A stretch of DNA of 64,000 nucleotides, from assembly GCA_963779495.1 (NCBI GenBank), contig CAVZYM010000004.1, positions 492,298 to 556,297 on the forward strand, given 5' to 3'. A program made the translations under genes and the position numbers. Under the pieces are notes generated by a model. The model worked only from the letters and a program-made list of their open reading frames with translations. It was not told the DNA's origin and did no database searches. Of this stretch, positions 7,046 to 60,949 are shown in pieces; within the stretch, counting starts at the first letter, position 1, and each line of letters begins with the position of its first letter. The DNA comes from an uncultured Pseudomonadota bacterium. Its GTDB lineage: Bacteria > Myxococcota_A > Polyangia > Fen-1088.

Positions 7046-7434
7046 CTGCCGGCGTCGGGGTCGACGCCGGTGCAGACGTTCTGCTTGGCGCAGACGCCGA
7101 GGGTGTTGAGGAAATCGCCGATGTTCCGGCAGTCGGTGCTGGCGATGCGGTTCAGGCAGACGTGGTACGCGTCCTCGTCGATCCGCCCCTCGCAGTCGGT
7201 CGCCGGCCAGGCCGACTCCCAGAACGACGTCCAAAAGATGTCGCACGACTCCCGGGTCTCGTAGTTGAGGCCGGGGCCGATGTAACCGCACCGCTGGTAG
7301 CGATCGCAGGTGGCGGTCGCCGTCGTGTCGCGGGCCTGCGCCCGCGACGCTTTGACACCGCCGCAGCCGCGCGCTCCGACGAGGACCGCGGTTGTCATCA
7401 GGGCCAACATCACGATTCGTGTCGTCGCCGTCAT
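7042..7434 (-). CDS. small Cys-rich lipoprotein (resembles myxobacterial DUF6184 family)
   Basis: Signal peptide with ARGC; 8 Cys in total, including CDRYQRC...C...C...CL..I...C...C..VC; GGAGG RBS. Confidence 0.7.
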   Translation of the reverse strand: MTATTRIVMLALMTTAVLVGARGCGGVKASRAQARDTTATATCDRYQRCGYIGPGLNYETRESCDIFWTSFWESAWPATDCEGRIDEDAYHVCLNRIASTDCRNIGDFLNTLGVCAKQNVCTGVDPDAGS

Positions 7435-47353: not shown

Positions 47354-47382
47354 TTGACCACAAAGGGATTTTTCGGTACAAA
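47354..47382 (+). promoter_or_regulatory. sigma70-like promoter for ihfA
   Basis: TTGACC-N17-TACAAA, ending 8 nt before ATG 47391. Confidence 0.5.
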
Positions 47383-47390
47383 CGTTGGCC

Positions 47391-47669
47391 ATGACGAAGG
47401 CCGACATTGTGGAGAACGTCTACGAGAAGGTGGGTGGATTCTCGAAGAAGGAGGCCGCCGAGATCGTCGAGACCGTCTTCGACACGATCAAGGAGACGCT
47501 GGAGCGCGGCGAGAAGATCAAGATCTCCGGCTTCGGCAACTTCGTCGTGCGCGACAAGAACGCGCGCGCCGGGCGGAACCCGCAGACCGGCCAGGAGATC
47601 ACGATCAGCGCGCGCCGCGTGCTGACCTTCAAGCCCAGCCAGGTGCTGAAGAACGTGCTCAACGACTGA
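47391..47669 (+). CDS. ihfA: integration host factor subunit alpha
   Basis: MTKADI...KISGFGNF.VRDK.AR.GRNPQTG.EI.ISARRVLTFKPSQ; canonical position after pheT. Confidence 0.96.
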   Translation: MTKADIVENVYEKVGGFSKKEAAEIVETVFDTIKETLERGEKIKISGFGNFVVRDKNARAGRNPQTGQEITISARRVLTFKPSQVLKNVLND

Positions 47670-47679
47670 GGCCGCGGGC

Positions 47680-48071
47680 GTGGCGCAGGCGCGCAGCGGC
47701 GACGGACGCTTCGGGGCTCCCCGACAGCCCGTACTTCAAGATCGGCGAGGCGGCGCGGCTGTGCGGCGTGAAGCCCTACGTGCTTCGCTACTGGGAGACG
47801 GAGTTCAAGTCGGTCAAGCCGCAGAAGACGCGCTCCCAGCAGCGCCTCTACCGGCGGCGCGACGTGGAGCTGCTGCTGAAGATTCGCCACCTCCTGTACG
47901 ACAAGCGCTACACGATCGAGGGGGCGCGCTCGCGCCTGCGCGAGCAGGGCCACGACGAAGGGCCGGTGACCGCGCCGCCCGTCGTTCCGCCGGCGCCGGC
48001 GATCAACCGGGAGACGCTTACAAAAGATCAAGCAAGGCCTCGCGGATCTGATACGTATCTGCGCGGAGTAA
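47680..48071 (+). CDS. MerR-family HTH regulator (conserved after ihfA; indels at both ends)
   Basis: YFKIGEAARLCGVKPYVLRYWETEF...QRLYRRRDV...LLY.KRYTIEGAR. Confidence 0.88.
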
Positions 48072-48083
48072 AGACATTTGTCG

Positions 48084-48161
<78 letters not shown>

Positions 48162-48170
48162 AAACGAGAC

Positions 48171-48964
48171 ATGAGAAGCCGTCTCGATCCTGGTCACGAA
48201 TGACGATGGCGTCGATGGCGCCGGGGATTCGAGCGGTGGCGGAGGCGCTGCGCGCGATCGGCGACGTCGTGGTGGCGGCGCCCGATCGCGAGCGCAGCGC
48301 CGCCTCGCACTCGATCTCGCTCGATCGGCCGCTGCGGGTCGACGAGGTCGAGGCGGGGGTCTTCGCCATCGACGGAACGCCGGTCGACTGCGTCTACCTG
48401 GCGCTGCTGCACCTGGTGCCGCGCCGGCCGGCGCTGGTGGTGTCGGGGATCAACAACGGCTTCAACCTCGGCTCGGACGTCTTCTACTCGGGGACCGTGG
48501 CGGGCGCGGTCGAGGGGGCGCTGCGCGGTGTGCCGGCGCTCGCGGTCTCGCTGGAGCGGCCGCAGCCCGCAGGACTTCTCCCACGCCGCCGGCGTTCGCG
48601 CGCGCGCTGGCGGCCGAGGTGATCCGTCGCGGCGCGAGCGGGCTCCCCGACGCATCGCTGCTGAGCGTCAACGTCCCCGGCGGGACCCATCACCGGCTAT
48701 CAGGTGACGTTCCTGGGACGGCGGGTCTACCGGGACCAGGTCGAGGTGCGGCAGGATCTGCGCGGGCGCTCGTACTACTGGATCGGCGGCCCCGAAGAGA
48801 AGGCGACCGATCTGCCGGGCTCGGACTGCAGCGCCATTCGTGACGGGCTCGTTTCGGTGACGCCCCTCGGGCTCGACCTCACGCACACGCGCCTCGTCGG
48901 CGAGCTGGTCGACTGGCAGGTGGGGAATTTCGTGCACCAGGCGATCGAACGCGCTAGGGATTAG
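48171..48964 (+). CDS. surE: 5'/3'-nucleotidase SurE (indels)
   Basis: ILVTNDDG, APDRERSAASHS, GTPVDCV, SGINNG.NLG.DVFYSGTV, YYWIG, VSVTPL. Confidence 0.92.
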
Positions 48965-48970
48965 ACCGTC

Positions 48971-49701
48971 ATGGCGGGGTCCCAGGAGGGTGGGGCCGGC
49001 GGGGGGGAGGCCAGCCGCCGGAGCCGCCGCAACCACCAGAAGATGAGCCGTTCGCGGCGCTGCGGCGCCGGATGGTGATCGAGCAGCTCGCGCACCGGGG
49101 CATCCGGGATCCGCGTGTGCTGGGGGCGATGGGGACGGTCCCGCGCCACCGGTTCGTGGATCCCGTGCTGGCGCGCCGACGCGTACGACGACCGACCGCT
49201 GGCGATCGGGTACGGCCAGACGATCTCGCAGCCCTACATGGTGGCGCGCGCGACCGAGCTGGCGGCGCCGCAGGCAGGCGATCGCGCGCTCGAGGTCGGG
49301 GCCGGCAGCGGTTACCAGACGGCGGTGCTGGCCGAGCTCTGCAGCCAGGTTTTCGCGATCGAGATCGTTCCCGCGCTGGCCCTGCGGGCGGCCCAGGTGC
49401 TGGCCGAGACCGGCTACCACAACGCGGTCGTCGAGGCGTTCGACGGCAGCGGCGGTTGGCCGGCGCACGCGCCGTACGACGTCATCATCGTATCGGCCGG
49501 GGCGCCGCGTATCCCGCCGCTGCTGGTCGCCGAGCTGGCGGAGGGGGGCGGCTGGTCATCCCGGTGGGGGGGCCGGAAGAGCAAGAATTGGCCGTCGTGC
49601 GCCGTGAGGGCGACCATTACGTCACCTCGTATGACACCCGCTGTCGCTACGTCGATCTCCTCGGCCGCTTCGGCGTCGGCAAGGGCGCGCCGGTGGCGTG
49701 A
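48971..49701 (+). CDS. pcm: protein-L-isoaspartate O-methyltransferase (indels)
   Basis: VPRHRFV, IGYGQTISQPYMVA, LEVGAGSGYQ, APYD.I.V.A, GGRLVIPVG; follows surE. Confidence 0.92.
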
Positions 49702-50383
49702 GGCAGGGCTCGCCGCGCTGCTGGCGGCGGTCATCGGGGGCTTCGCTGGCGGGCTGCCACGCCGAGCGCGCGGCGCCGATGCATCCGGAGAGCCTCCCGG
49801 GGCGCTGGCACGTGGTCGCCGCGGGAGAGACCCTGGCCAGCGTGGCCCGCGCCGCCGGCGTCCCCGCCGAGGACATCCTGGAGATCAACGGCCTGACCCG
49901 CTCCGACGAGGTCGTCCCCGGTCGCACCATCTTCGTGCTCGAACCCAGCCGTCCGCCGCAGCTCGCCGCGGTAGCGCCCACCGATCCGGCGCAGCCCCCC
50001 GGCATGCAGTGGCCGCTGACGACACTCCGGGTCGTCGTGGGATCGCCGTTCGGAACGCGTGACGGGCGCCCGCACGAAGGGATCGATCTCCCCGCGCCGA
50101 TCGGCACCCCCGTGTTCGCCGCCGCGGAGGGGCGCGTCGCCTACGCCGGCAGCCGGATCCGCGGCTACGGCAACATGATCGTGCTCCGACACGGCGGCGA
50201 CCTGATGACGGTTTACGCCCACAACTCTGTGCTGCTGGTGTCCCAGGGGCAGCCCGTGCGCGCCGGCGATCGCATCGCGCTCGTCGGCCAGAGCGGGCAC
50301 GCGACCGGCCCGCACTTGCATTTCGAGGTGCGATCCGGGCAGATTCCGACAGACCCGATGCGCTTCCTCCCCCCGAGGGCCCC

Positions 50384-50387
<4 letters not shown>
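49698..50387 (+). CDS. LysM/M23 peptidase lipoprotein (NlpD-like position)
   Basis: LAGC lipobox; HVVAAGETL LysM; HEGID, GYGN, YAH, TGPHLHFEVR. Confidence 0.9.
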
Positions 50388-52376
<1,989 letters not shown>

Positions 52377-52404
52377 GACCGTGAACCCCTCCGGTCAGTC
52401 GCCG

Positions 52405-53552
52405 TCAGTCTTGGCGCTCGATGATCTTTCGCCGGATCGAGGCGGTCCGGCAGATGAACGGGTCGATGCCGGTGTAGCTACCCGACGCGTTGAACGACGC
52501 GCCTCGGTCGCGCGCGCAGTAGGCCTTGTCCGGGCAGGGAGCGCAGGAGCTGTAGTCGGACATCCGCAGCCCGCGTATGCGCTGGAACACCGGTGACGAG
52601 CGCCAGATCTCGGCGAACGGCTGCTCGCGTACGTTCCCCGCCGTCCAGGGGACCGAGATGCAGGGATAGACGTCGCCGCGCGACGAGACGGCACAGTTGC
52701 CACGCGCGCAGTTGCAGGCGAACCGCTCTTCGCTGACCGGCTGCGGCCCCTTCGGCAGAAGGTTGCGCAGGGGGCCGCTGGTAGAGCTGCTCCAGCTGCT
52801 GCTCATCGACCCGTGTCGCCAGGCTGCCGCCGTCGCCGTCGTGCCGCGTGGTGATGGTGACGTCGATGAGGTACGTGAAGCCTCTCGCGGTGGCGAACGC
52901 CCGCATCGCCTCGACCTCATGGGCGTTCGCTTTCATGACGATGAACTTCACGCGCACGGCGATCCCGAGACTGCGGCAGCCGGGCAGCCCCTTCCCAGGT
53001 CCGCCGCCACGAGCCCTGCACCTGGGTGATGCCGTCATGCACCTCGGCCGTCGCGCCATAGACGCTGATGCTGACCCCCAAGAGGTTGCGGTAGCCGGCG
53101 AGGCGGGCGGTCATTCCCGGCCGCAGCAGCGTGCCGTTGCTCAGCAGCTGGACGGCCAGGTTCAGCTCGCGCGCCCGATCGAGCACGGCGAAGAGGTGAG
53201 GGTAGGTCAGCACCTCCCCGCCGGTCAGCGACAGGAACAGGCAGCCGGCGGCCCGCAGGTCGGCGAGCAGCGCCAGGATCTCGGGGAGCGTCAGCTCGGG
53301 CTTCGCGTCGGCGCAGGCCGCGTCGCGCGCGGCCTTGGGCTGGTCGCGATCGAAGTTGTAGCAGTGCAGGCAACGGATGTTGCACTTGAGCGTCAGCTCC
53401 AGCGACACGTTGAGCGGCACGGTCTGCGCGAAGGCCTTGGTCTGCATCGCGCTCACGACCGCGTAGCTCGCGTCGGTGCCCACGACGGTCGAATCGGCGC
53501 ACACGGGCGCCTCCGTCTGCGGCGGACCGACGATATCGCCGGCGGCGCTCAT
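52405..53552 (-). CDS. radical SAM/SPASM peptide maturase (frameshifts near 52975 and 52775)
   Basis: ELTLKCNIRCLHCY (CX3CX2C), LTGGE, SNG, S.YG...HD..T; SPASM CNCARGNC...GDVYPC...GNV...CAPC.....C...C. Confidence 0.9.
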
Positions 53553-53828
53553 GCGGCCAGCAGCAGCCCCTTGCCGCCCAGCTCTCCGACCAGCTCCTCG
53601 ACAGCCGAATCGCAGCTCGTCGGCGGGGGCGTCGTACTCCTCGCCCAGCGCCGCGACGAGCTCGTCGACCGATTGCGGGGCCGCGAGCAGCTCCCACACC
53701 CGCGCCGCGGTGTCGTTCAGAAGGTGGACCTCGCGGCTACGCGGGTCGACGACGATCGTCTCCTCCTCCAGCCTCTGGTACGGCAGCTCGGAATCGCGGC
53801 GCCAGACGCTCGACCGGGCGGCGCTCAT
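53549..53828 (-). CDS. PqqD-family RiPP recognition element (RRE), stand-alone (indel near 53607)
   Basis: VHLLNDTAARVWELL...SVDELVAALGEEYD, then shifted frame AVEELVGELGGKGLLLAA*; stop overlaps rSAM ATG. Confidence 0.88.
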
Positions 53829-55207
53829 CGTCCGGCCATCTTCAGCAGCGGGATCGCCACCAGAGACCCAACCAGCCGGGCCAGGTTGCCGACGCGTCCG
53901 GGGACCTGGCGTGTCTTGCCGTCGCGGGCGACCGCGACCACCTTGCCGAGAATCTCGTAGCGGCGGTGGTTCTCGAACTTTTCGATGCGCGCCACGGAAT
54001 CCCCCTTGGTGATGAAGGTGGCCGCCCCGCCCCTCAGGTCGGGGACGCGGGCCACGAGTCGGTGACAGACCAGCAGGTCGTCTTCAGGCGATCGTCCGGG
54101 GCTCCAGTAGAGGAGGATGTCCCCCGCGTTCATCTCGTCCTCCTTCAGCGTCTGGATGAACAGCGAGTCACCCGGCTTCAGCCAGGGGCGCATGCTGGTC
54201 CCCTTTGAATGCGACGCGTAGGTCTTGTGTTTACGCAGGAAGGCCCGGAAGTCGGAGATCATCTCCCGTTCGCTGGCGGGCGGGACTTTGCGGTGGGTCT
54301 CGGGCCCGAGGTGCGGTCCCAGTTTGCGGAAGATGTCGGCGGTGCCGACGTTGCGGGTCAGGCTCGCCTCGACGCAGCGGACCTCGGAGCAGAGCTGGAT
54401 CGCCAGGGGCAGGTTGCGCGCGACCGAGGCGGGGTCGCTGACGAAGGAGAGGAAGCAGCCGAGCAAGCGCAGCGTCGCTTCCGCCGATACGATCGGTGTC
54501 ATCGTCACCGTGTCGCGGGGCGACTGGGCCAGGAAGGCCAGCGTGCGCAGCGGCCAGCTGCGCATCGAGATGCCGCCGCGCGCGAAGTCGCCCCAGAAGG
54601 GCGTCCCCGAAACCCGCCAGCCATCGTCGGTACGCCGCACCGCCACCAGCTCGTCGGAGAGCACGTCGTCTGCGTCGGGGGCCTTGCGGGCCAGGGTGCT
54701 CTTGCCGGCGCCGCTGCGGCCGGGGAACACGACGCCGATCTCGGCATGCCGCAGGCCGCAGCTGTGGATCAGCATCCCGCCGACCCGCGGCAGCAGCGTC
54801 GACCAGATCACGCGGAGGATGCAGTCGACCGCGACGGGGCTCAGGGCGCAGCGTCCCTCGCCGCGAAACAGCGGCAGCCGCTTGCGTCCGGGCGCTGCCG
54901 TGAGGCGCACCTTCACGTCCCAGCGGTCGATGGCCAGCTTCGTGTCCGACGCCGTGACCGTCAGCGGTTTCTCGGCGGGGCCGGGGGCTCGCTTGCCGGG
55001 CGGAACCGCCGATTCGAAGGTCAGGCGCAACGCGAAGCCGCGTTCGACGATCGCGGCGGACGGCATCTCGAACGCGCCGTATCGGGCGCGGAGCTGTTCC
55101 ATGAATGTCGATGGGGCACCGACCAGTTCCAGGTGCCCGACGATGCCGCCGATCGAGAGCGTCAGCTCCTCCACGGGTTGGCGGCGAGAACGCGAGGAGG
55201 TCGTCAT
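53825..55207 (-). CDS. fusion of HprK-related P-loop kinase and S24/S26 serine peptidase
   Basis: IHSCG...FPGRSGAGKST...LSDE...GTPF (HprK-like); GTSMRPWLKPGD...HRLV...ITKGD...ILGKV (S26, Ser/His); continuous ORF. Confidence 0.85.
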   Translation of the reverse strand: MTTSSRSRRQPVEELTLSIGGIVGHLELVGAPSTFMEQLRARYGAFEMPSAAIVERGFALRLTFESAVPPGKRAPGPAEKPLTVTASDTKLAIDRWDVKVRLTAAPGRKRLPLFRGEGRCALSPVAVDCILRVIWSTLLPRVGGMLIHSCGLRHAEIGVVFPGRSGAGKSTLARKAPDADDVLSDELVAVRRTDDGWRVSGTPFWGDFARGGISMRSWPLRTLAFLAQSPRDTVTMTPIVSAEATLRLLGCFLSFVSDPASVARNLPLAIQLCSEVRCVEASLTRNVGTADIFRKLGPHLGPETHRKVPPASEREMISDFRAFLRKHKTYASHSKGTSMRPWLKPGDSLFIQTLKEDEMNAGDILLYWSPGRSPEDDLLVCHRLVARVPDLRGGAATFITKGDSVARIEKFENHRRYEILGKVVAVARDGKTRQVPGRVGNLARLVGSLVAIPLLKMAGR

Positions 55208-55365
55208 GACGTGGTGAAGCCCTGATCCGCGCACTGCTCCATGCCTATGTCGTTCTTGAGGCAGGCAAGGCTGTTCGACTCGAACAGCTGCCCGGTCTTG
55301 ACGCGCGGTCGCTGCCAGGCCTTCTTGCGCCGGGGCGGCTTTCGCTGCTGGGGTTTCTCTGCCAC
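55204..55365 (-). CDS. putative RiPP precursor peptide, 53 aa (MAEKPQQRKPPRRKKAWQRPRVKTGQLFESNSLACLKNDIGMEQCADQGFTTS)
   Basis: AAAGGA RBS before GTG 55365; WxxPxV RRE-binding leader motif; two Cys; stop overlaps kinase ATG. Confidence 0.8.
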   Translation of the reverse strand: MAEKPQQRKPPRRKKAWQRPRVKTGQLFESNSLACLKNDIGMEQCADQGFTTS

Positions 55366-55378
55366 GTCGGTCCTTTCT

Positions 55379-55978
55379 CTATTCGAGCTTGTCCAGCGCG
55401 CCCTTGGCCGCCACCCGCACGTCGCCCGCCGGATCCTTGGCGTGAACATGTCTGAGCTCGGCCAGCGCGTGTCGGGTAACCATGTGTCCGTTCGTCGTCT
55501 CGGCCAGTTCTCCGAGCGCCCACGCCGCGTTCTGGCGAACGTAGGGGCTCTTGTCGACCAGCAGGCGCTCGAAGAGCTCGGCCTGGTCCGACGACTTGAA
55601 CTTCCCGAGCACCCGGGTGCAGAACGCCCGCACCCGCTGGTCGCCGTCGGTCTCGGCGCAGGTCACCAGGGCCGGCGTGTAGCGCGCGGGCGTCCCGGTG
55701 AACTCTCGATCCAGGGCCAGCACGGTGTCGGCGTCGCGAACCAGGATCGCGTTGCGCCAGGACGACATCGCGGTCTCCACCCGTTTGGCTATCTCTTCAG
55801 GAGTGGCCGGAGGGGGCGGGGAGAGGTCGCGGGCGTGAAAGCCGCCGAAGCCCGGGCCCTCGGCCTCGCCGCCGGCCGCGCGCTGACGCGGGCCGGTCGA
55901 ACGGAGCGCGAACAGCCCAGCGCCCGTCACAGCAATCAACAGCCCGGCCGCGAGCCACGTCTTATCCCTCTTGGACAT
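55379..55978 (-). CDS. HEAT-repeat protein with N-terminal TM anchor
   Basis: D..RVRAF..RVLG, D.SPYVRQNAAWALG, D..DVRVAA..AL repeats. Confidence 0.82.
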   Translation of the reverse strand: MSKRDKTWLAAGLLIAVTGAGLFALRSTGPRQRAAGGEAEGPGFGGFHARDLSPPPPATPEEIAKRVETAMSSWRNAILVRDADTVLALDREFTGTPARYTPALVTCAETDGDQRVRAFCTRVLGKFKSSDQAELFERLLVDKSPYVRQNAAWALGELAETTNGHMVTRHALAELRHVHAKDPAGDVRVAAKGALDKLE

Positions 55979-56143
55979 GCGATCTGAATCAACCAGCGTT
56001 CAGGCCGATTCCTCATATCTTATCGTCTGTTGCGCCGGACGCACAATTTCCCTCACGCTCCTTCATCGACCCTTCGGAACGGGACTTGAATGGGCTCAGC
56101 CGCTGGGTGGCGGGCGGTTTCGTGCTACAAAACCTCGCCTCGA

Positions 56144-56217
<74 letters not shown>

Positions 56218-56275
56218 CATTGCGGCGTTCGAAAGTCGGATCTATAGACAGGACGAAGCTCATCGAGATCACGAA

Positions 56276-56668
56276 ATGGCGCTCGGCCGGCACCCCCGTC
56301 CCGCAGTCTTGGTCGTCGAAGACGACCGCGACGTCGCGATGACCATAAACGACGTGGTCGAAGAGCGGGGCTATCGCGCGATCTGCGTGGCCAACGGCCG
56401 GGAGGCGCTTTCGGCGCTGGAGGCGGAACGCCCGGCCCTGATGCTTGTCGATATGTTCATGCCGGTGATGAACGGAGCCGAGTTCTTGAAGGTCGTGAAG
56501 CAGACGCCGAAGCTGGCGTCGATACCCCGCGTCATCATGACCGCCGCCAACGACCCGATGATCGGCATCAAGGAGGACGTGACCGTTCTCTACAAGCCGG
56601 TCGATTTCGATGCGCTGAACCGGTTGCTCGCCCGTTATTGCGAGCCGCCGCAGGCGCAGACGCGATGA
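56276..56668 (+). CDS. single-domain response regulator receiver
   Basis: VLVVEDD, LVDMFMPVMNG, IMTA, KPVD. Confidence 0.92.
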   Translation: MALGRHPRPAVLVVEDDRDVAMTINDVVEERGYRAICVANGREALSALEAERPALMLVDMFMPVMNGAEFLKVVKQTPKLASIPRVIMTAANDPMIGIKEDVTVLYKPVDFDALNRLLARYCEPPQAQTR

Positions 56669-57864
56669 TTTTCCGCAGGGGGGCGCTGCTCCTCGTTGCG
56701 CCGTTGGTCGCGCCCTTGGTCGGTCTGCTGGCCGGGGCGGGTGGCTGCCGCCGCGACGCCGGGCTGGGGCCGGCCGACTCGTTCCTGGTCTATGCGCCGG
56801 CGCCGGCGGAGGGGGGAGGCCTGCGACGTTCGGGAGCCAACCTGCCGGTGGTCGAGCCGATGGCGCCCGACGATCCGCGCGCGGAGCCGGTCTTCAAGCA
56901 GCTGGCGGTGGGGTTCGCGGCCGAGGTGCTGCGGACCGATTACCTCGCCAAGCAGCTGGTGCGCGATGCCGATGTCGGGGGCCGCCGCTATCCCGAGGCG
57001 GCGCGCGCCAGCGCCCGGCAGCCGACCGTGCTGCTGGTGGGCGGGCCCCGCGACGAGGCGCCCGCCGCGGGTCGCGGCCTTGCCCTGCGCGCGATGTTCG
57101 GGCGGACCGACGAGCACCCGGGCGTCGTCTGGATTCCCCTCGACGCTTACCCCGATCACGACCGCGCCCTGGCCCAGACCCTGACCGGGCAGCTCGGTGC
57201 CGCGGCCGCCACACGGGTGGCCGGCGAGACGGCGCCGAAGGCCCTGATCGCAGGCTACGCCCAGGCGCTGGAGGTGATCGCGCGTGAGTGGCGGGTAGGA
57301 GAGGGGCCCGCCGGGGCGCTTCCCGCCGACGCCGGCACCGCCACCCAGCGGGAGCTGTTCGCCGCCGTTCGCGAGAACCGGTTCGCGCTGACGGCCGGTG
57401 GCGCGCCGCGCCCGCCGGTCGAGCAGCTGGCGGATCCTGGGCTGACGGCGACGGTGCTCTACCGCCTCGCCCAGTCGAAGGCGGTCGGCCGCAAGGTCGC
57501 GGGACCGGAGGTCTACGCACCGTTCGTGACCGACCGGGTCCCCCCGGGCGTGAGCCCGGCCGCGGTGCTGGGGCCGTTCCGCAACTTCCAGGCGAAGCTG
57601 CTCTCGGCCTGGGGGCGGGCGGTGCTGGAGGGGCGGCCGCCCCGCGACATCGCCGATCTGGTCGACGCCTACGCGCGGGCGCTGCCCGCCGAGAAGGCGG
57701 AGGTCATTCGCATCTTCGTGATCACGACCTACGGGGCGACGGTGAAGGCAGGCGGCATCCAGCCTCCGACGGGGGACGCCGGGGGAGCCCTCGCCGCGCT
57801 GACCGCGGTCGCTGCCGAGGTAGCGGCCGGGAAGCTGTCGACGCGCGCCGCGGCGCAGCCCTAG
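56665..57864 (+). CDS. hypothetical lipoprotein
   Basis: Hydrophobic N-terminus ending AGGC; ATGA overlap with receiver gene. Confidence 0.68.
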   Translation: MIFRRGALLLVAPLVAPLVGLLAGAGGCRRDAGLGPADSFLVYAPAPAEGGGLRRSGANLPVVEPMAPDDPRAEPVFKQLAVGFAAEVLRTDYLAKQLVRDADVGGRRYPEAARASARQPTVLLVGGPRDEAPAAGRGLALRAMFGRTDEHPGVVWIPLDAYPDHDRALAQTLTGQLGAAAATRVAGETAPKALIAGYAQALEVIAREWRVGEGPAGALPADAGTATQRELFAAVRENRFALTAGGAPRPPVEQLADPGLTATVLYRLAQSKAVGRKVAGPEVYAPFVTDRVPPGVSPAAVLGPFRNFQAKLLSAWGRAVLEGRPPRDIADLVDAYARALPAEKAEVIRIFVITTYGATVKAGGIQPPTGDAGGALAALTAVAAEVAAGKLSTRAAAQP

Positions 57865-57915: not shown

Positions 57916-58865
57916 ATGGCTTCTTTCTGGCAGGGTCGCCGCACGCTGGTCACCGGCGGCGCCGGTTTCCTCGGGAGTTTCGTCGTCGACCGACTGCGCG
58001 CCGCGGGCGCGCTGGTGGTCGTCCCTCGCTCGGCGGAGTACGACCTGGTCGATCGCGGCGCGGTCCGCCGCCTGCTCGCCGATGCCAAGCCGGACCTGGT
58101 GATCCACCTGGCGGCGCGGGTCGGCGGGATCGGCGCCAATCGCGAAAATCCGGGGCGCTACCTGTTCGAGAACGCGATGATGGGGCTGCAGCTGTTCGAG
58201 GAGTGCCGGCTGGCCCGCGTCGCCAAGCTGGTGGCGGCCGGAACGATCTGCGCCTACCCGAAGTTCGCGCCGATACCGTTCAAGGAAGACGACCTCTGGA
58301 ACGGCTACCCGGAGGAGACCAACGCGCCGTACGGCATCGCCAAGAAGATCATGCTGGTCCAGTCCGAGGCCTACCGCGCGCAATACGGCCTGAACAGCGT
58401 GGTCTTGTTCCCGGTCAACCTCTACGGCCCGCGCGACAACTTCGATCTGCAGTCGTCGCACGTCATCCCGGCGATGGTCCGGAAGTTCGTGGGCGCGCGC
58501 GAGCGGGGTGAGCCCGAGGTGACGCTGTGGGGCGACGGCTCGCCGACGCGGGAGTTCCTGTACGTCGAGGACGCCGCCGAGGGGATCGTACTGGCGGCCG
58601 AGCGCTACGACGCGAGCGATCCGGTCAACCTGGGGAGTGGGCGCGAGATCGCGATCCGCGACCTGGCCCAGGAGATCGCCCGCGCCGCGCGCTTCACCGG
58701 TCGTTTCATCTGGGACACCAGCAAGCCGAACGGGCAGCCGCGGCGGCGCCTCGACGTCACCCGGGCGCGTGAGCGCTTCGGGTTCGAGGCCAAGACGCCC
58801 TTCGACAAGGGGCTGGCCGCGACCGTGGCCTACTACGAACAGCACCAAAAGGAGATCGAGACCAA

Positions 58866-58869
<4 letters not shown>
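57916..58869 (+). CDS. fcl: GDP-L-fucose synthase
   Basis: [56 protein letters not shown]. Confidence 0.94.
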
Positions 58870-59876
<1,007 letters not shown>

Positions 59877-59905
59877 CGCGACGCGGGCGCCGCGCCACCC
59901 ACCTG

Positions 59906-60874
59906 TCAGCGGGGGGCGCGGGCGGCCCAGGCGCGGTTGTCACGGTACCAGGCGACCGTCTCCGCGAGCCCGTGCTCGAAGTCGCGGCGCGGTCGCCAGC
60001 CGAGGCGCTCGCGCAGCTTGCGCGGGTTTGTGGCGTAGCGACGGTCGTGGCCGAGCCGATCGGGGACGTGCCTGATCAGGCGCTCGTCGCCGCCGGTCAG
60101 CCGCAAGATGGCGCGCACGACCTCCAGGTTCGTCCGTTCGGTCTCGGCGCCGACGTTGTAGACCTCCCCGGCGCGCCCGCGCAGCAGGATGGTGTCGAGC
60201 GCCTCGCAGTGGTCGTCGACGTGAATCCAGTCGCGGACCTGCCGCCCGTCGCCGTAAACCGGCAGCGGCCTGCCGTCGAGCGCGTTCAGGATCATGAGCG
60301 GGATCAGCTTCTCGGGATACTGCCGGGGGCCGTAGTTGTTACAGGCGCGGGCGATCACCACGTCCATCGCGAAGGTGTGGTGGTAGGCGAGCACGAAGCC
60401 GTCGGCGGCGGCCTTGCTGGCGGCGTAGGGGTTGCGCGGCGCCAGCGGGCTCGCCTCGTCGAACGCCCCCTCGGCGGGCAGCGTGCCGTAGACCTCGTCG
60501 GTCGACACCTGCAGGAACCGGCCGACCCGGGCCGCGCGCGCCGCCTCCAGCAGCTGCACCGTCCCGGCGACGTTGCTGGCCACGAACGGTGCCGCCGCGG
60601 CGAGGCTGCGGTCGACGTGGCTCTCGGCCGCCAGGTTGACGACCGCGTCGATAGCGTGGTCGCGCATCAGCCCCAGCATCGCGTCGCCGTCGCGGATGTC
60701 GGCGTGAACGAAGAGGTGCCCCGCGTCGGCGTCCAGGTCGCGCAGGTTGTCGCGATTGCCGGCGTAGGTCAGCGCATCGACCGTGACGACCCGATCCGCG
60801 GGACGGGCGCTGCGCGCGCGCCGGACGTAGGCCGACCCGATGAATCCGGCGCCGCCGGTGATCAGCAAATTCAT
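59906..60874 (-). CDS. rfbB: dTDP-glucose 4,6-dehydratase
   Basis: TGGAGFIG, DALTYAG, AAESHVDRS, STDEVYG, YAASK, NNYGPRQYPEKLIP, DRLGHDRRY. Confidence 0.95.
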   Translation of the reverse strand: MNLLITGGAGFIGSAYVRRARSARPADRVVTVDALTYAGNRDNLRDLDADAGHLFVHADIRDGDAMLGLMRDHAIDAVVNLAAESHVDRSLAAAAPFVASNVAGTVQLLEAARAARVGRFLQVSTDEVYGTLPAEGAFDEASPLAPRNPYAASKAAADGFVLAYHHTFAMDVVIARACNNYGPRQYPEKLIPLMILNALDGRPLPVYGDGRQVRDWIHVDDHCEALDTILLRGRAGEVYNVGAETERTNLEVVRAILRLTGGDERLIRHVPDRLGHDRRYATNPRKLRERLGWRPRRDFEHGLAETVAWYRDNRAWAARAPR

Positions 60875-60949
60875 GCCCATCGCGTCGAATTATCTCAATT
60901 AACTGCCGCCGACGCGTGTCCATCATGGGACGTGGCATCATCGGTGGGG

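Follow-up and report, generated by a model that had tools for sequence, protein, structure and literature searches.

A conserved two-cysteine peptide ending in serine as the putative precursor of a modified peptide, encoded with an HprK-like kinase, an S26 peptidase, a PqqD protein, and a radical SAM/SPASM enzyme in soil bacteria

In the 64,000-nucleotide stretch of DNA analyzed here (the window), taken from contig CAVZYM010000004.1 of an uncultured bacterium of the Polyangia (assembly GCA_963779495.1), the minus strand carries a short gene for a peptide with two conserved cysteines and a C-terminal serine, followed by genes for an HprK-like kinase fused to an S26 peptidase, a PqqD-family recognition protein, and a radical S-adenosylmethionine (SAM)/SPASM maturase. 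Judged by sequence comparison, the short gene is the first of a translationally coupled operon and belongs to a large, uncharacterized family, and the gene set appears to be widespread in soil bacteria. We consider it rather likely that the gene encodes the precursor of a peptide made by the ribosome and modified after translation (RiPP) that would be processed by the operon enzymes in the manner proposed below. The features of the operon are as follows, with all coordinates given as window positions:

55371..55377, minus strand: ribosome-binding site GAAAGGA, with a 5-nt spacer to the precursor GTG
55204..55365, minus strand: precursor peptide gene, 53 codons, GTG start at 55365, TGA stop at 55206-55204
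53825..55207, minus strand: HprK-like kinase::S26 (SipW/Sec11-type) peptidase, 460 amino acids (aa), whose ATG overlaps the precursor stop (TCATGA)
53549..53828, minus strand: PqqD-family recognition protein (PF05402, 51.2 bits), whose ATG overlaps the kinase stop
52405..53552, minus strand: radical SAM/SPASM maturase (Radical_SAM 52.3 bits, SPASM 49.1 bits), whose ATG at 53552 overlaps the PqqD stop

Translated on the minus strand from GTG 55365-55363, the precursor reads MAEKPQQRKPPRRKKAWQRPRVKTGQLFESNSLACLKNDIGMEQCADQGFTTS, its 3' end encoding ...GFTTS before the TGA. An earlier note on this DNA had taken this GTG, with its ribosome-binding site, as the real start, and had described a Cys-X9-Cys core ending in Ser; the GAAAGGA stretch is present, Cys35 and Cys45 are separated by nine residues, and Ser53 is the last residue. 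The list of open reading frames (ORFs) contains only an 81-aa form starting at ATG 55449, which overlaps the upstream HEAT-repeat gene in another frame, and the HEAT gene ends in a TAG (55381-55379) located 13 nt before the GTG. A word-indexed search returned eight homologues of 53-57 aa that had been called independently in other assemblies, share the start position with GTG 55365, and begin with M/V-A-[E/D]-K. Because homologues of the same length and N terminus begin there, comparison indicates that the gene is real and that GTG 55365 is its start. Several orthologues (L003, L021, L039, L040, and L064) have ATG in place of GTG, and orthologous starts are likewise preceded by purine-rich stretches. 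Long spurious ORFs are abundant in high-GC DNA, and either a chance ORF or the 81-aa form could in principle account for the reading frame; we find both hardly credible, however, as the 28 additional codons upstream in the 81-aa form lie over the HEAT gene and show no conservation, and a chance frame is contradicted by conservation. In addition to the homologues above, a precursor adjoins the kinase gene in 20/20 fetched same-genus loci (the window's own locus counted), and change within the gene is mostly synonymous: pairwise comparison of 30 orthologues over a conserved stretch of 21 codons gave 2557 synonymous versus 1569 non-synonymous codon differences, with variable columns by codon position of 12/8/18. 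A promoter and terminator scan of 51500-56700 returned 0 promoter-like sites (0.2 expected) and 0 terminator-like sites (2.2 expected). A search for sequencing runs matching 52400-56000 gave four DNA runs with small shares (0.05-0.07) and no RNA run.

The precursor is not confined to the window. Of 401 genomes from the window's class that were searched with a profile, 47 contain it, including 36/71 of the window's bacterial family and 18/19 of its genus; relatives are labeled 'Polyangia bacterium' at NCBI, and the weak matches in other Polyangia families are true relatives of the form ...RPYERPAVVSDEVFETMALSCAKANRFTCPGGNPQSS. When a profile of 35 precursors was run against 1.84 billion proteins, 819 cluster representatives (clusters at 50% identity) were retrieved at E<=0.001, 34 of them reaching E<=1e-10, with one cluster member labeled Bryobacteraceae (Acidobacteriota). 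A metagenome scan with FETxAL[AS]CGK matched at least 602 stretches, and at least 591 loci were confirmed. Curated family libraries contained no match to the precursor.

Four features are common to the precursor family: [Y/W]xxP, FE[S/T]x[A/S]L[A/S]C, a second Cys, and a C-terminal Ser. In the window, the corresponding positions are:

55300..55317, minus strand: leader motif W17-Q-R-P20-R-V22, the predicted PqqD contact, with W and P invariant in 27/27 precursors
55276..55284, minus strand: F28-E29-S30, counterpart of the leader end F-3 E-2 T-1 of the LPP system described below
55261..55275, minus strand: N31-S32-L33-A34-C35, an AXA-like stretch with the first conserved Cys and the alternative cut A34|C35
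55255..55257, minus strand: K37, a near-invariant Lys two residues after Cys35
55231..55233, minus strand: C45, the second conserved Cys (Cys-X9-Cys)
55207..55209, minus strand: S53, the conserved C-terminal Ser and candidate phosphorylation site

The earlier note had suggested aligning homologous precursors for the Cys residues, the LAC stretch, and the terminal Ser, and all of these proved to be conserved. In 27 aligned precursors, K4, K14, W17, P20, G25, L27, F28 to C35, K37, C45, and S53 are invariant. Across 230 unique precursors, to which all motif percentages refer and in which positions are counted from Cys1 (C35 in the window), P is found at -15 in 98%, F at -7 in 96%, E at -6 in 99%, T/S at -5 in 89%, A/S at -3 in 96%, L at -2 in 96%, A/S at -1 in 92%, Cys1 in 100%, G at +1 in 83%, and K at +2 in 95%, the K37 position being D or S in two distant family members. 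Most members read FETMALAC, with no Ser/Thr after FET. Exactly two Cys occur in 220 of these cores, three in 9, and one in 1; among the 229 with at least two Cys, the spacing is Cys-X9-Cys in 167 and seven residues follow Cys2 in 179, and the modal core length counted from Cys1 is 18. Ser is the last residue in 96% of the 230 precursors, in 143/150 best library matches, and in 123/123 precursors of fetched loci, where it is written with all six Ser codons and followed by all three stop codons; therefore, gene overlap cannot explain it. The L-A-C stretch was also considered as a lipoprotein lipobox, and this was rejected, as the leader lacks a hydrophobic segment and Leu stands at -2 rather than -3. 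One precursor (L051, genome G019) has a longer tail after Cys2 (...RPLLRPHEPSTAS) and keeps the Ser end; its kinase gene is split, with an internal TGA.

The genes that follow the precursor are conserved with it. In the window operon, the order is precursor, kinase::S26, PqqD, and radical SAM/SPASM, and 4-nt ATGA overlaps join precursor to kinase, kinase to PqqD, and PqqD to radical SAM; throughout the window's bacterial family, the same order is preceded by the HEAT gene. The 80 metagenome loci kept for neighborhood counts, out of the at least 591 confirmed, show the order precursor, S26 peptidase, kinase, PqqD, and radical SAM/SPASM. Where the sequence of a metagenome locus continues for at least 3.2 kb past the precursor, 29/32 loci contain all four partners, and the three exceptions (two with no PqqD match and one with no S26 match) retain the radical SAM/SPASM gene; this tally was unchanged with a rebuilt radical SAM hidden Markov model (42 loci matched). 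More distant Polyangia carry the kinase, S26, and radical SAM parts as separate genes, with an HprK-like kinase of 31% identity to the window's, a radical SAM/SPASM enzyme, and, in one locus, a separate 157-aa S26 protein. A second locus of one genome (L064 in G170; precursor at 7253-7414) has PqqD and radical SAM directly after the precursor, without kinase::S26, and here too the Ser end is kept.

The PqqD protein of the window looks fused to the radical SAM gene through a frameshift near 53608, and in 17/17 other loci it is a separate protein of 89-114 aa. Orthologous PqqD passes TIGR04353, the 'HPr-rel-A system PqqD family peptide chaperone' (35.9 bits versus a cut-off of 35), and is next most like lasso PqqD chaperones; against solved structures, the PqqD profile was most like the lasso B1 protein TbiB1 (E 2.5e-8) and also like TfuB1. 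The description of the leader as lasso-type in the earlier note thus held, [Y/W]xxPx[V/I/F] being conserved and the cognate PqqD being most like lasso B1 proteins. Complex prediction of the RiPP recognition element with the leader, which had been put forward as a further check, gave a score of 0.54 for PqqD with its own precursor (orthologous pair L021) versus 0.01 for the best of three controls, with at least 90% contact agreement between runs and a partner predicted local distance difference test (pLDDT) of at least 54. This weakly supports the pairing, given that the mark used was reached by 58/80 solved complexes and 2/110 mismatched pairs and that scores of 0.60 or below came from only 7 of those 80 solved complexes and from both mismatches. 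The pass may also come from the predictor's memory, like complexes having been solved.

In the 460-aa fusion protein, the N-terminal two thirds is a P-loop kinase related to HPr kinase and the C-terminal third is an S26 peptidase, with the following elements:

54695-54721, minus strand: kinase Walker A, G.SG.GK[S/T]TLARK
54227-54268, minus strand: linker helix
54182-54202, 54056-54070, and 53996-54010, minus strand: S26 catalytic residues Ser338, His382, and Asp403, respectively
53828-53890, minus strand: conserved C-terminal tail, GNLARL.GSLVA.P.L.MAGR

Of 31 aligned kinase orthologues, 30 keep Walker A, SDE, and GTPFWGDF.RGG, the remaining row being unreadable. Matches of the kinase to NCBIfam are weak (ScmC 38.1 bits, cut-off 125; HprK_rel_B 19.4; HprK_rel_A 17.5, cut-off 200). 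An AlphaFold2 model of the whole protein reached a pLDDT of 84.8 and a predicted template modeling score (pTM) of 0.86, and Foldseek with all 460 residues matched only phosphoenolpyruvate (PEP) carboxykinases (E 4e-6, template modeling score ~0.3), the fold of which is shared by HPr kinase. The S26 domain contains GTSMRPW, CHR, and TKGD, which an alignment to SEC11C (E 0.005) places on its Ser, His, and Asp motifs, and the match to sigpep_I_arch is 29 bits, below the cut-off of 51.85. No membrane segment is present in stand-alone S26 homologues (19-residue hydropathy peaking at <=1.4 in 11/11 examined), and leader cleavage would therefore be cytoplasmic. The earlier note's mention of a paeninodin-type kinase agrees with these results: the kinase is HprK-like, and, as far as the consulted part of PMC8498205 goes, linear lasso precursors are phosphorylated on their C-terminal Ser by HprK homologues, for which the remaining peptide matters little. 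The tail of the fusion is modeled at low confidence as two short helices and persists in orthologues that have lost the peptidase motifs. All 120 listed kinase::S26 homologues (P0010-P0129) bear the precomputed Pfam label PF27840, so that this protein may already be covered by a recent Pfam family.

When searched with intact orthologues by tblastn, the radical SAM gene of the window is recovered as pieces in three frames (53510-52977, 52993-52772, and 52776-52420), with frame changes near 52985 and 52774; the third frame change, near 53608, lies in PqqD. The nearby genes pcm, gluQRS, and surE (47354-52140) are likewise split between frames. Because these neighboring housekeeping genes are split too, and because the genome is 68% complete in 5 contigs, the three frameshifts in PqqD and radical SAM, which the earlier note had missed, are probably assembly errors. 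The assembly looks rich in indels, and apparent fusions and pseudogenes of this genome should be distrusted.

Taken together, the conserved partners suggest the following pathway. The PqqD protein would very probably bind the leader via W17xxP20xV22 and present the peptide to the enzymes. The radical SAM/SPASM enzyme may then modify the short core around its two Cys, most likely by thioether cross-links, a step to which we give even confidence. We are slightly inclined to assign to the HprK-like kinase domain the phosphorylation, once or several times, of the invariant Ser53, and the fused cytoplasmic S26 domain (Ser338/His382/Asp403) would remove the leader. For the place of this last cut, the model is the linear polyphosphorylated peptide (LPP) system of Bacillota (LppA/K/B/S/D/N; Popov et al., Nat Commun 2026, PMC13381572). 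According to the consulted part of that article, its SipW-like peptidase LppS has a Ser/His/Asp set and depends on the recognition protein, and its cut falls after F-3 E-2 T-1. By homology with LppS, a cut after F28-E29-S30 is somewhat favored.

Several observations weigh against this pathway. (i) In 19/31 kinase::S26 orthologues (loci L004-L018, L020, L044, L047, and L049, compared with window 53996-54202), the peptidase Ser and the KGD box are lost while FESNSLAC is still invariant; therefore, the fused S26 domain cannot serve as leader peptidase throughout. Sixteen of these 19 belong to the window's genus and have the nearly fixed core CGKNGPGMxSCEQFPKxS, and the window and 10 others keep the S26 catalytic motifs and have variable cores, one of the 31 rows being unreadable. 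(ii) No cross-link acceptor is invariant, the best being an Asn three residues after Cys2 in 55% of the 230 precursors. (iii) The intact radical SAM orthologue scores far below every curated maturase cut-off (best 112.9 bits versus 500; StsB 77.2 versus 625, AlbA 64.4 versus 850, ScmE/F 46.8-73.9 versus 400), with similarly low scores across the chemistries of AhbD, NirJ, MftC, WgkB, and StsB, and a sequence search of solved structures gave faint matches to BlsE, PqqE, SuiB, and SkfB, so that the chemistry cannot be read from homology. (iv) No exporter is encoded among the ORFs of the window operon. (v) The LPP kinase targets Ser3 of the core (PMC13381572, in the part consulted) rather than a terminal Ser, and Ser30 and Ser32 of the window precursor lie near that place. 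(vi) If the frameshifts in PqqD and radical SAM were real, the pathway would be dead in this organism.

Within the same system, the leader could instead be cut at Ala34|Cys35, as the earlier note had proposed, yielding a 19-residue peptide with an N-terminal Cys. Part of this proposal stands: the presence of an S26 domain, together with A/S at -1 and -3 in nearly all precursors, fits the small-residue rule of type I signal peptidases, and conservation drops only after C-G-K, where the border between leader and core is usually expected. However, that rule comes from membrane-bound signal peptidases and their signal-peptide substrates, to which the hydrophilic precursor leader does not belong; F-E-[T/S], five residues before Cys35, is conserved to the same degree as A-L-A; and LppS, the only characterized homologue, depends on all three F-E-T residues by mutagenesis (PMC13381572, consulted part). 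By analogy, FES30|N31 is more likely and better founded than LA|C35, because the homologous enzyme cuts after F-E-T, and we regard the cut after L33-A34 as a somewhat unlikely variant.

The target of the kinase could also differ from Ser53. In LPP, the leader YxxPxVLxHQxIxFETxxS places the phosphorylated Ser three residues after the cut, and an HprK-like kinase polyphosphorylates this core Ser3 in a system with a discrete recognition protein (PMC13381572, consulted part); the window family has FESNS at the equivalent place, and Ser30 or Ser32 by the cut site might be the substrate. Something else would then account for the conserved terminal Ser, for instance its use in radical SAM recognition, in subsequent tailoring, or in product function. 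This appears unlikely, since the typical FETMALAC precursor has no residue there to phosphorylate, the terminal Ser is retained in almost all precursors and in every fetched locus, and lasso-type HprK homologues act on a C-terminal Ser (PMC8498205, consulted part).

The two Cys may instead form a disulfide loop or a metal site, with the radical SAM enzyme carrying out epimerization, a C-C or ether cross-link, or a change to Lys37. In accordance with this, the only near-invariant core residues besides the Cys are Gly at +1, Lys at +2, and the terminal Ser, and the radical SAM scores are similarly low against families of many chemistries. Two Cys at fixed spacing together with a radical SAM/SPASM enzyme and PqqD are, however, the usual signature of thioether systems, and in the 230 cores an acidic or amide residue is often found within four residues after Cys2. 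We consider the disulfide or metal reading improbable.

Upstream of the precursor lies one further conserved gene:

55379..55978, minus strand: HEAT-repeat gene with an N-terminal hydrophobic segment (HEAT_2, 49.9 bits)

In window-family loci that reach that far, a tblastn match to the HEAT gene is found just upstream of the precursor, and in the window's genus the locus is syntenic and adjoins housekeeping genes. Repeat proteins of other kinds also lie directly upstream of the precursor elsewhere, namely FG-GAP giants in distant Polyangia (L052:3955-7722, L053:8125-12387, and L054:7916-12049) and Kelch propellers in two metagenome loci (L097:4718-5833 and L108:4621-5853); these may be partners or targets of the peptide, or coincidence. 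Sugar-nucleotide genes lie at 57916-60880, ~2 kb from the operon, with matches to GDP-mannose 4,6-dehydratase (519.8 bits), dTDP-glucose 4,6-dehydratase (430.6 bits), and, below cut-off, a GDP-L-fucose synthase-like gene (284.6 bits); LPP and paeninodin clusters are likewise reported beside polysaccharide loci, in the portions of the literature consulted. NTP_transf_5 (PF14907) genes of the genome are found only on another contig, with none in the operon. Among eight long metagenome loci examined, PF14907 occurs in two (L114:742-3436 and L088:1440-2639), one of which also has an ATP-binding cassette (ABC) transporter next to the cassette; both gene types belong to the LPP core set and are absent from the window.

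This neighborhood bears on a further alternative, in which the peptide would not be a secreted product at all but a cofactor precursor or a small cross-linked subunit for the neighboring repeat protein, after the examples of pyrroloquinoline quinone (PQQ), mycofactocin, and the gamma subunit of quinohemoprotein amine dehydrogenase. In its favor, an exporter is missing from the operon, the locus is syntenic, occurs in 18/19 genus genomes sampled, and stands beside housekeeping genes, the core is nearly fixed in most congeners, and a repeat protein (HEAT, FG-GAP, or Kelch) is directly upstream in several lineages. Yet these repeat proteins have unrelated folds and are missing in other loci, the cores vary in the window's own subgroup, and no redox enzyme is linked, so that we hold this alternative to be very doubtful. 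Within the reading given in the next paragraph, vertical inheritance beside a membrane-anchored HEAT protein in the window's genus would suggest a physiological rather than an antibiotic role, with the peptide acting as a signal, as a cofactor, or as a partner of the repeat protein.

With slightly less than even confidence, we propose that the cassette represents a distinct RiPP class that is common in soil Acidobacteriota and Myxococcota, in which lasso/LPP-type machinery would be combined with a radical SAM/SPASM enzyme to give a product of ~18-23 residues, cross-linked at its two Cys and (poly)phosphorylated at its C-terminal Ser. The cassette links two lines of RiPP research, the recognition-kinase-peptidase module of lasso peptides and LPP on one side and radical SAM cross-linking on the other, and it would extend beyond Bacillota the use of signal-peptidase-like enzymes as leader peptidases, a use discovered very recently. 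It also offers a clear experimental target, since the peptide is short, the operon is small, and the mass shifts to look for can be predicted precisely, and the natural variants with dead peptidase domains provide a built-in test of processing. In the literature searched, we found no description of a cassette combining such a precursor with a kinase, S26, PqqD, and radical SAM, the nearest being PMC13381572.

Several known systems share parts of this gene set. Among these are the lasso peptides, as the precursor carries a W17xxP20xV22 leader and is accompanied by a discrete PqqD protein like the B1 proteins TbiB1 and TfuB1. Paeninodin-type lasso clusters (PMC8498205, consulted part) further resemble the window cassette in their HprK-homologous kinase, B1-type PqqD, W/YxxP leader, and C-terminal Ser, which is obligatory there, and these likenesses are what could be said for a true lasso precursor. 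They differ in that the window cassette has neither a B2 protease nor a lasso cyclase and instead has an S26 leader peptidase and a radical SAM enzyme. For B2 (Transglut_core3, PF13471), the sole match in the genome lies on another contig and, at 23.5 bits, stays below the cut-off of 26; for the cyclase, the operon has no further ORF, every one being assigned to another family, and no cyclase-directed family search was made. Moreover, Asp/Glu is not conserved at core positions 7-9, which lie 6-8 residues after Cys1 (n=230). A true lasso precursor is thus extremely improbable, and we conclude that the window precursor is not a lasso peptide; with no B2 and no cyclase, neither a macrolactam nor a threaded fold is expected in its product.

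Sactipeptides, ranthipeptides, and the QhpC/QhpD system combine a radical SAM/SPASM enzyme and a PqqD-type recognition element with a Cys-containing core. The window family differs from these in having only two Cys, in the constant presence of the kinase and S26, and in that its maturase falls below the curated cut-offs, including those of StsB, AlbA, SkfB, and ScmE/F. Two further systems, SynChlorMet and the 'HPr-rel-A system', are NCBIfam/TIGRFAM definitions made by computation. The best NCBIfam match of the window kinase is ScmC of SynChlorMet, although below its cut-off, and the window has one radical SAM gene rather than two (ScmE and ScmF); for the HPr-rel-A system, the orthologous PqqD passes TIGR04353, whereas the kinase stays far below the HprK_rel_A cut-off. 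To our knowledge, no such precursor has been described for either system.

LPP is the closest characterized system to the window cassette, as judged from the consulted part of its description. The text of the article (PMC13381572) does not mention radical SAM, Acidobacteriota, or Myxococcota and calls LPP Bacillota-restricted; its Supplementary Data 1, however, lists Acidobacteriota and Myxococcota SpI homologues in rows numbered 3 and 11, which we take as similarity-network clusters, and some of these are adjoined by a recognition protein; these homologues are not taken up in the text of the article. Both systems have (i) a discrete lasso-like recognition protein, an HprK-like kinase, and an archaeal-type Ser/His/Asp peptidase for the leader, (ii) a leader with [Y/W]xxPx[V/I] and then F-E-T/S, (iii) a helix before the peptidase barrel, which in LPP contacts the sheet of recognition protein and leader, and (iv) a sugar-nucleotide/polysaccharide gene neighborhood. 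In contrast to the LPP core set, which also includes a pump (MsbA-like exporter) and a nucleoside triphosphate (NTP) transferase (PMC13381572), the window operon has neither. The cores of the window family are short, with Cys-X9-Cys and a terminal Ser, whereas LPP cores are long and variable; the position three after FE[T/S] is Leu in 96% of the window family and Ser in LPP, and the spacing from Y/W to F is two residues shorter. Finally, a radical SAM/SPASM enzyme is a constant partner in the window family, which therefore does not correspond to the linear LPP set with no class enzyme, and its hosts are Myxococcota and Acidobacteriota.

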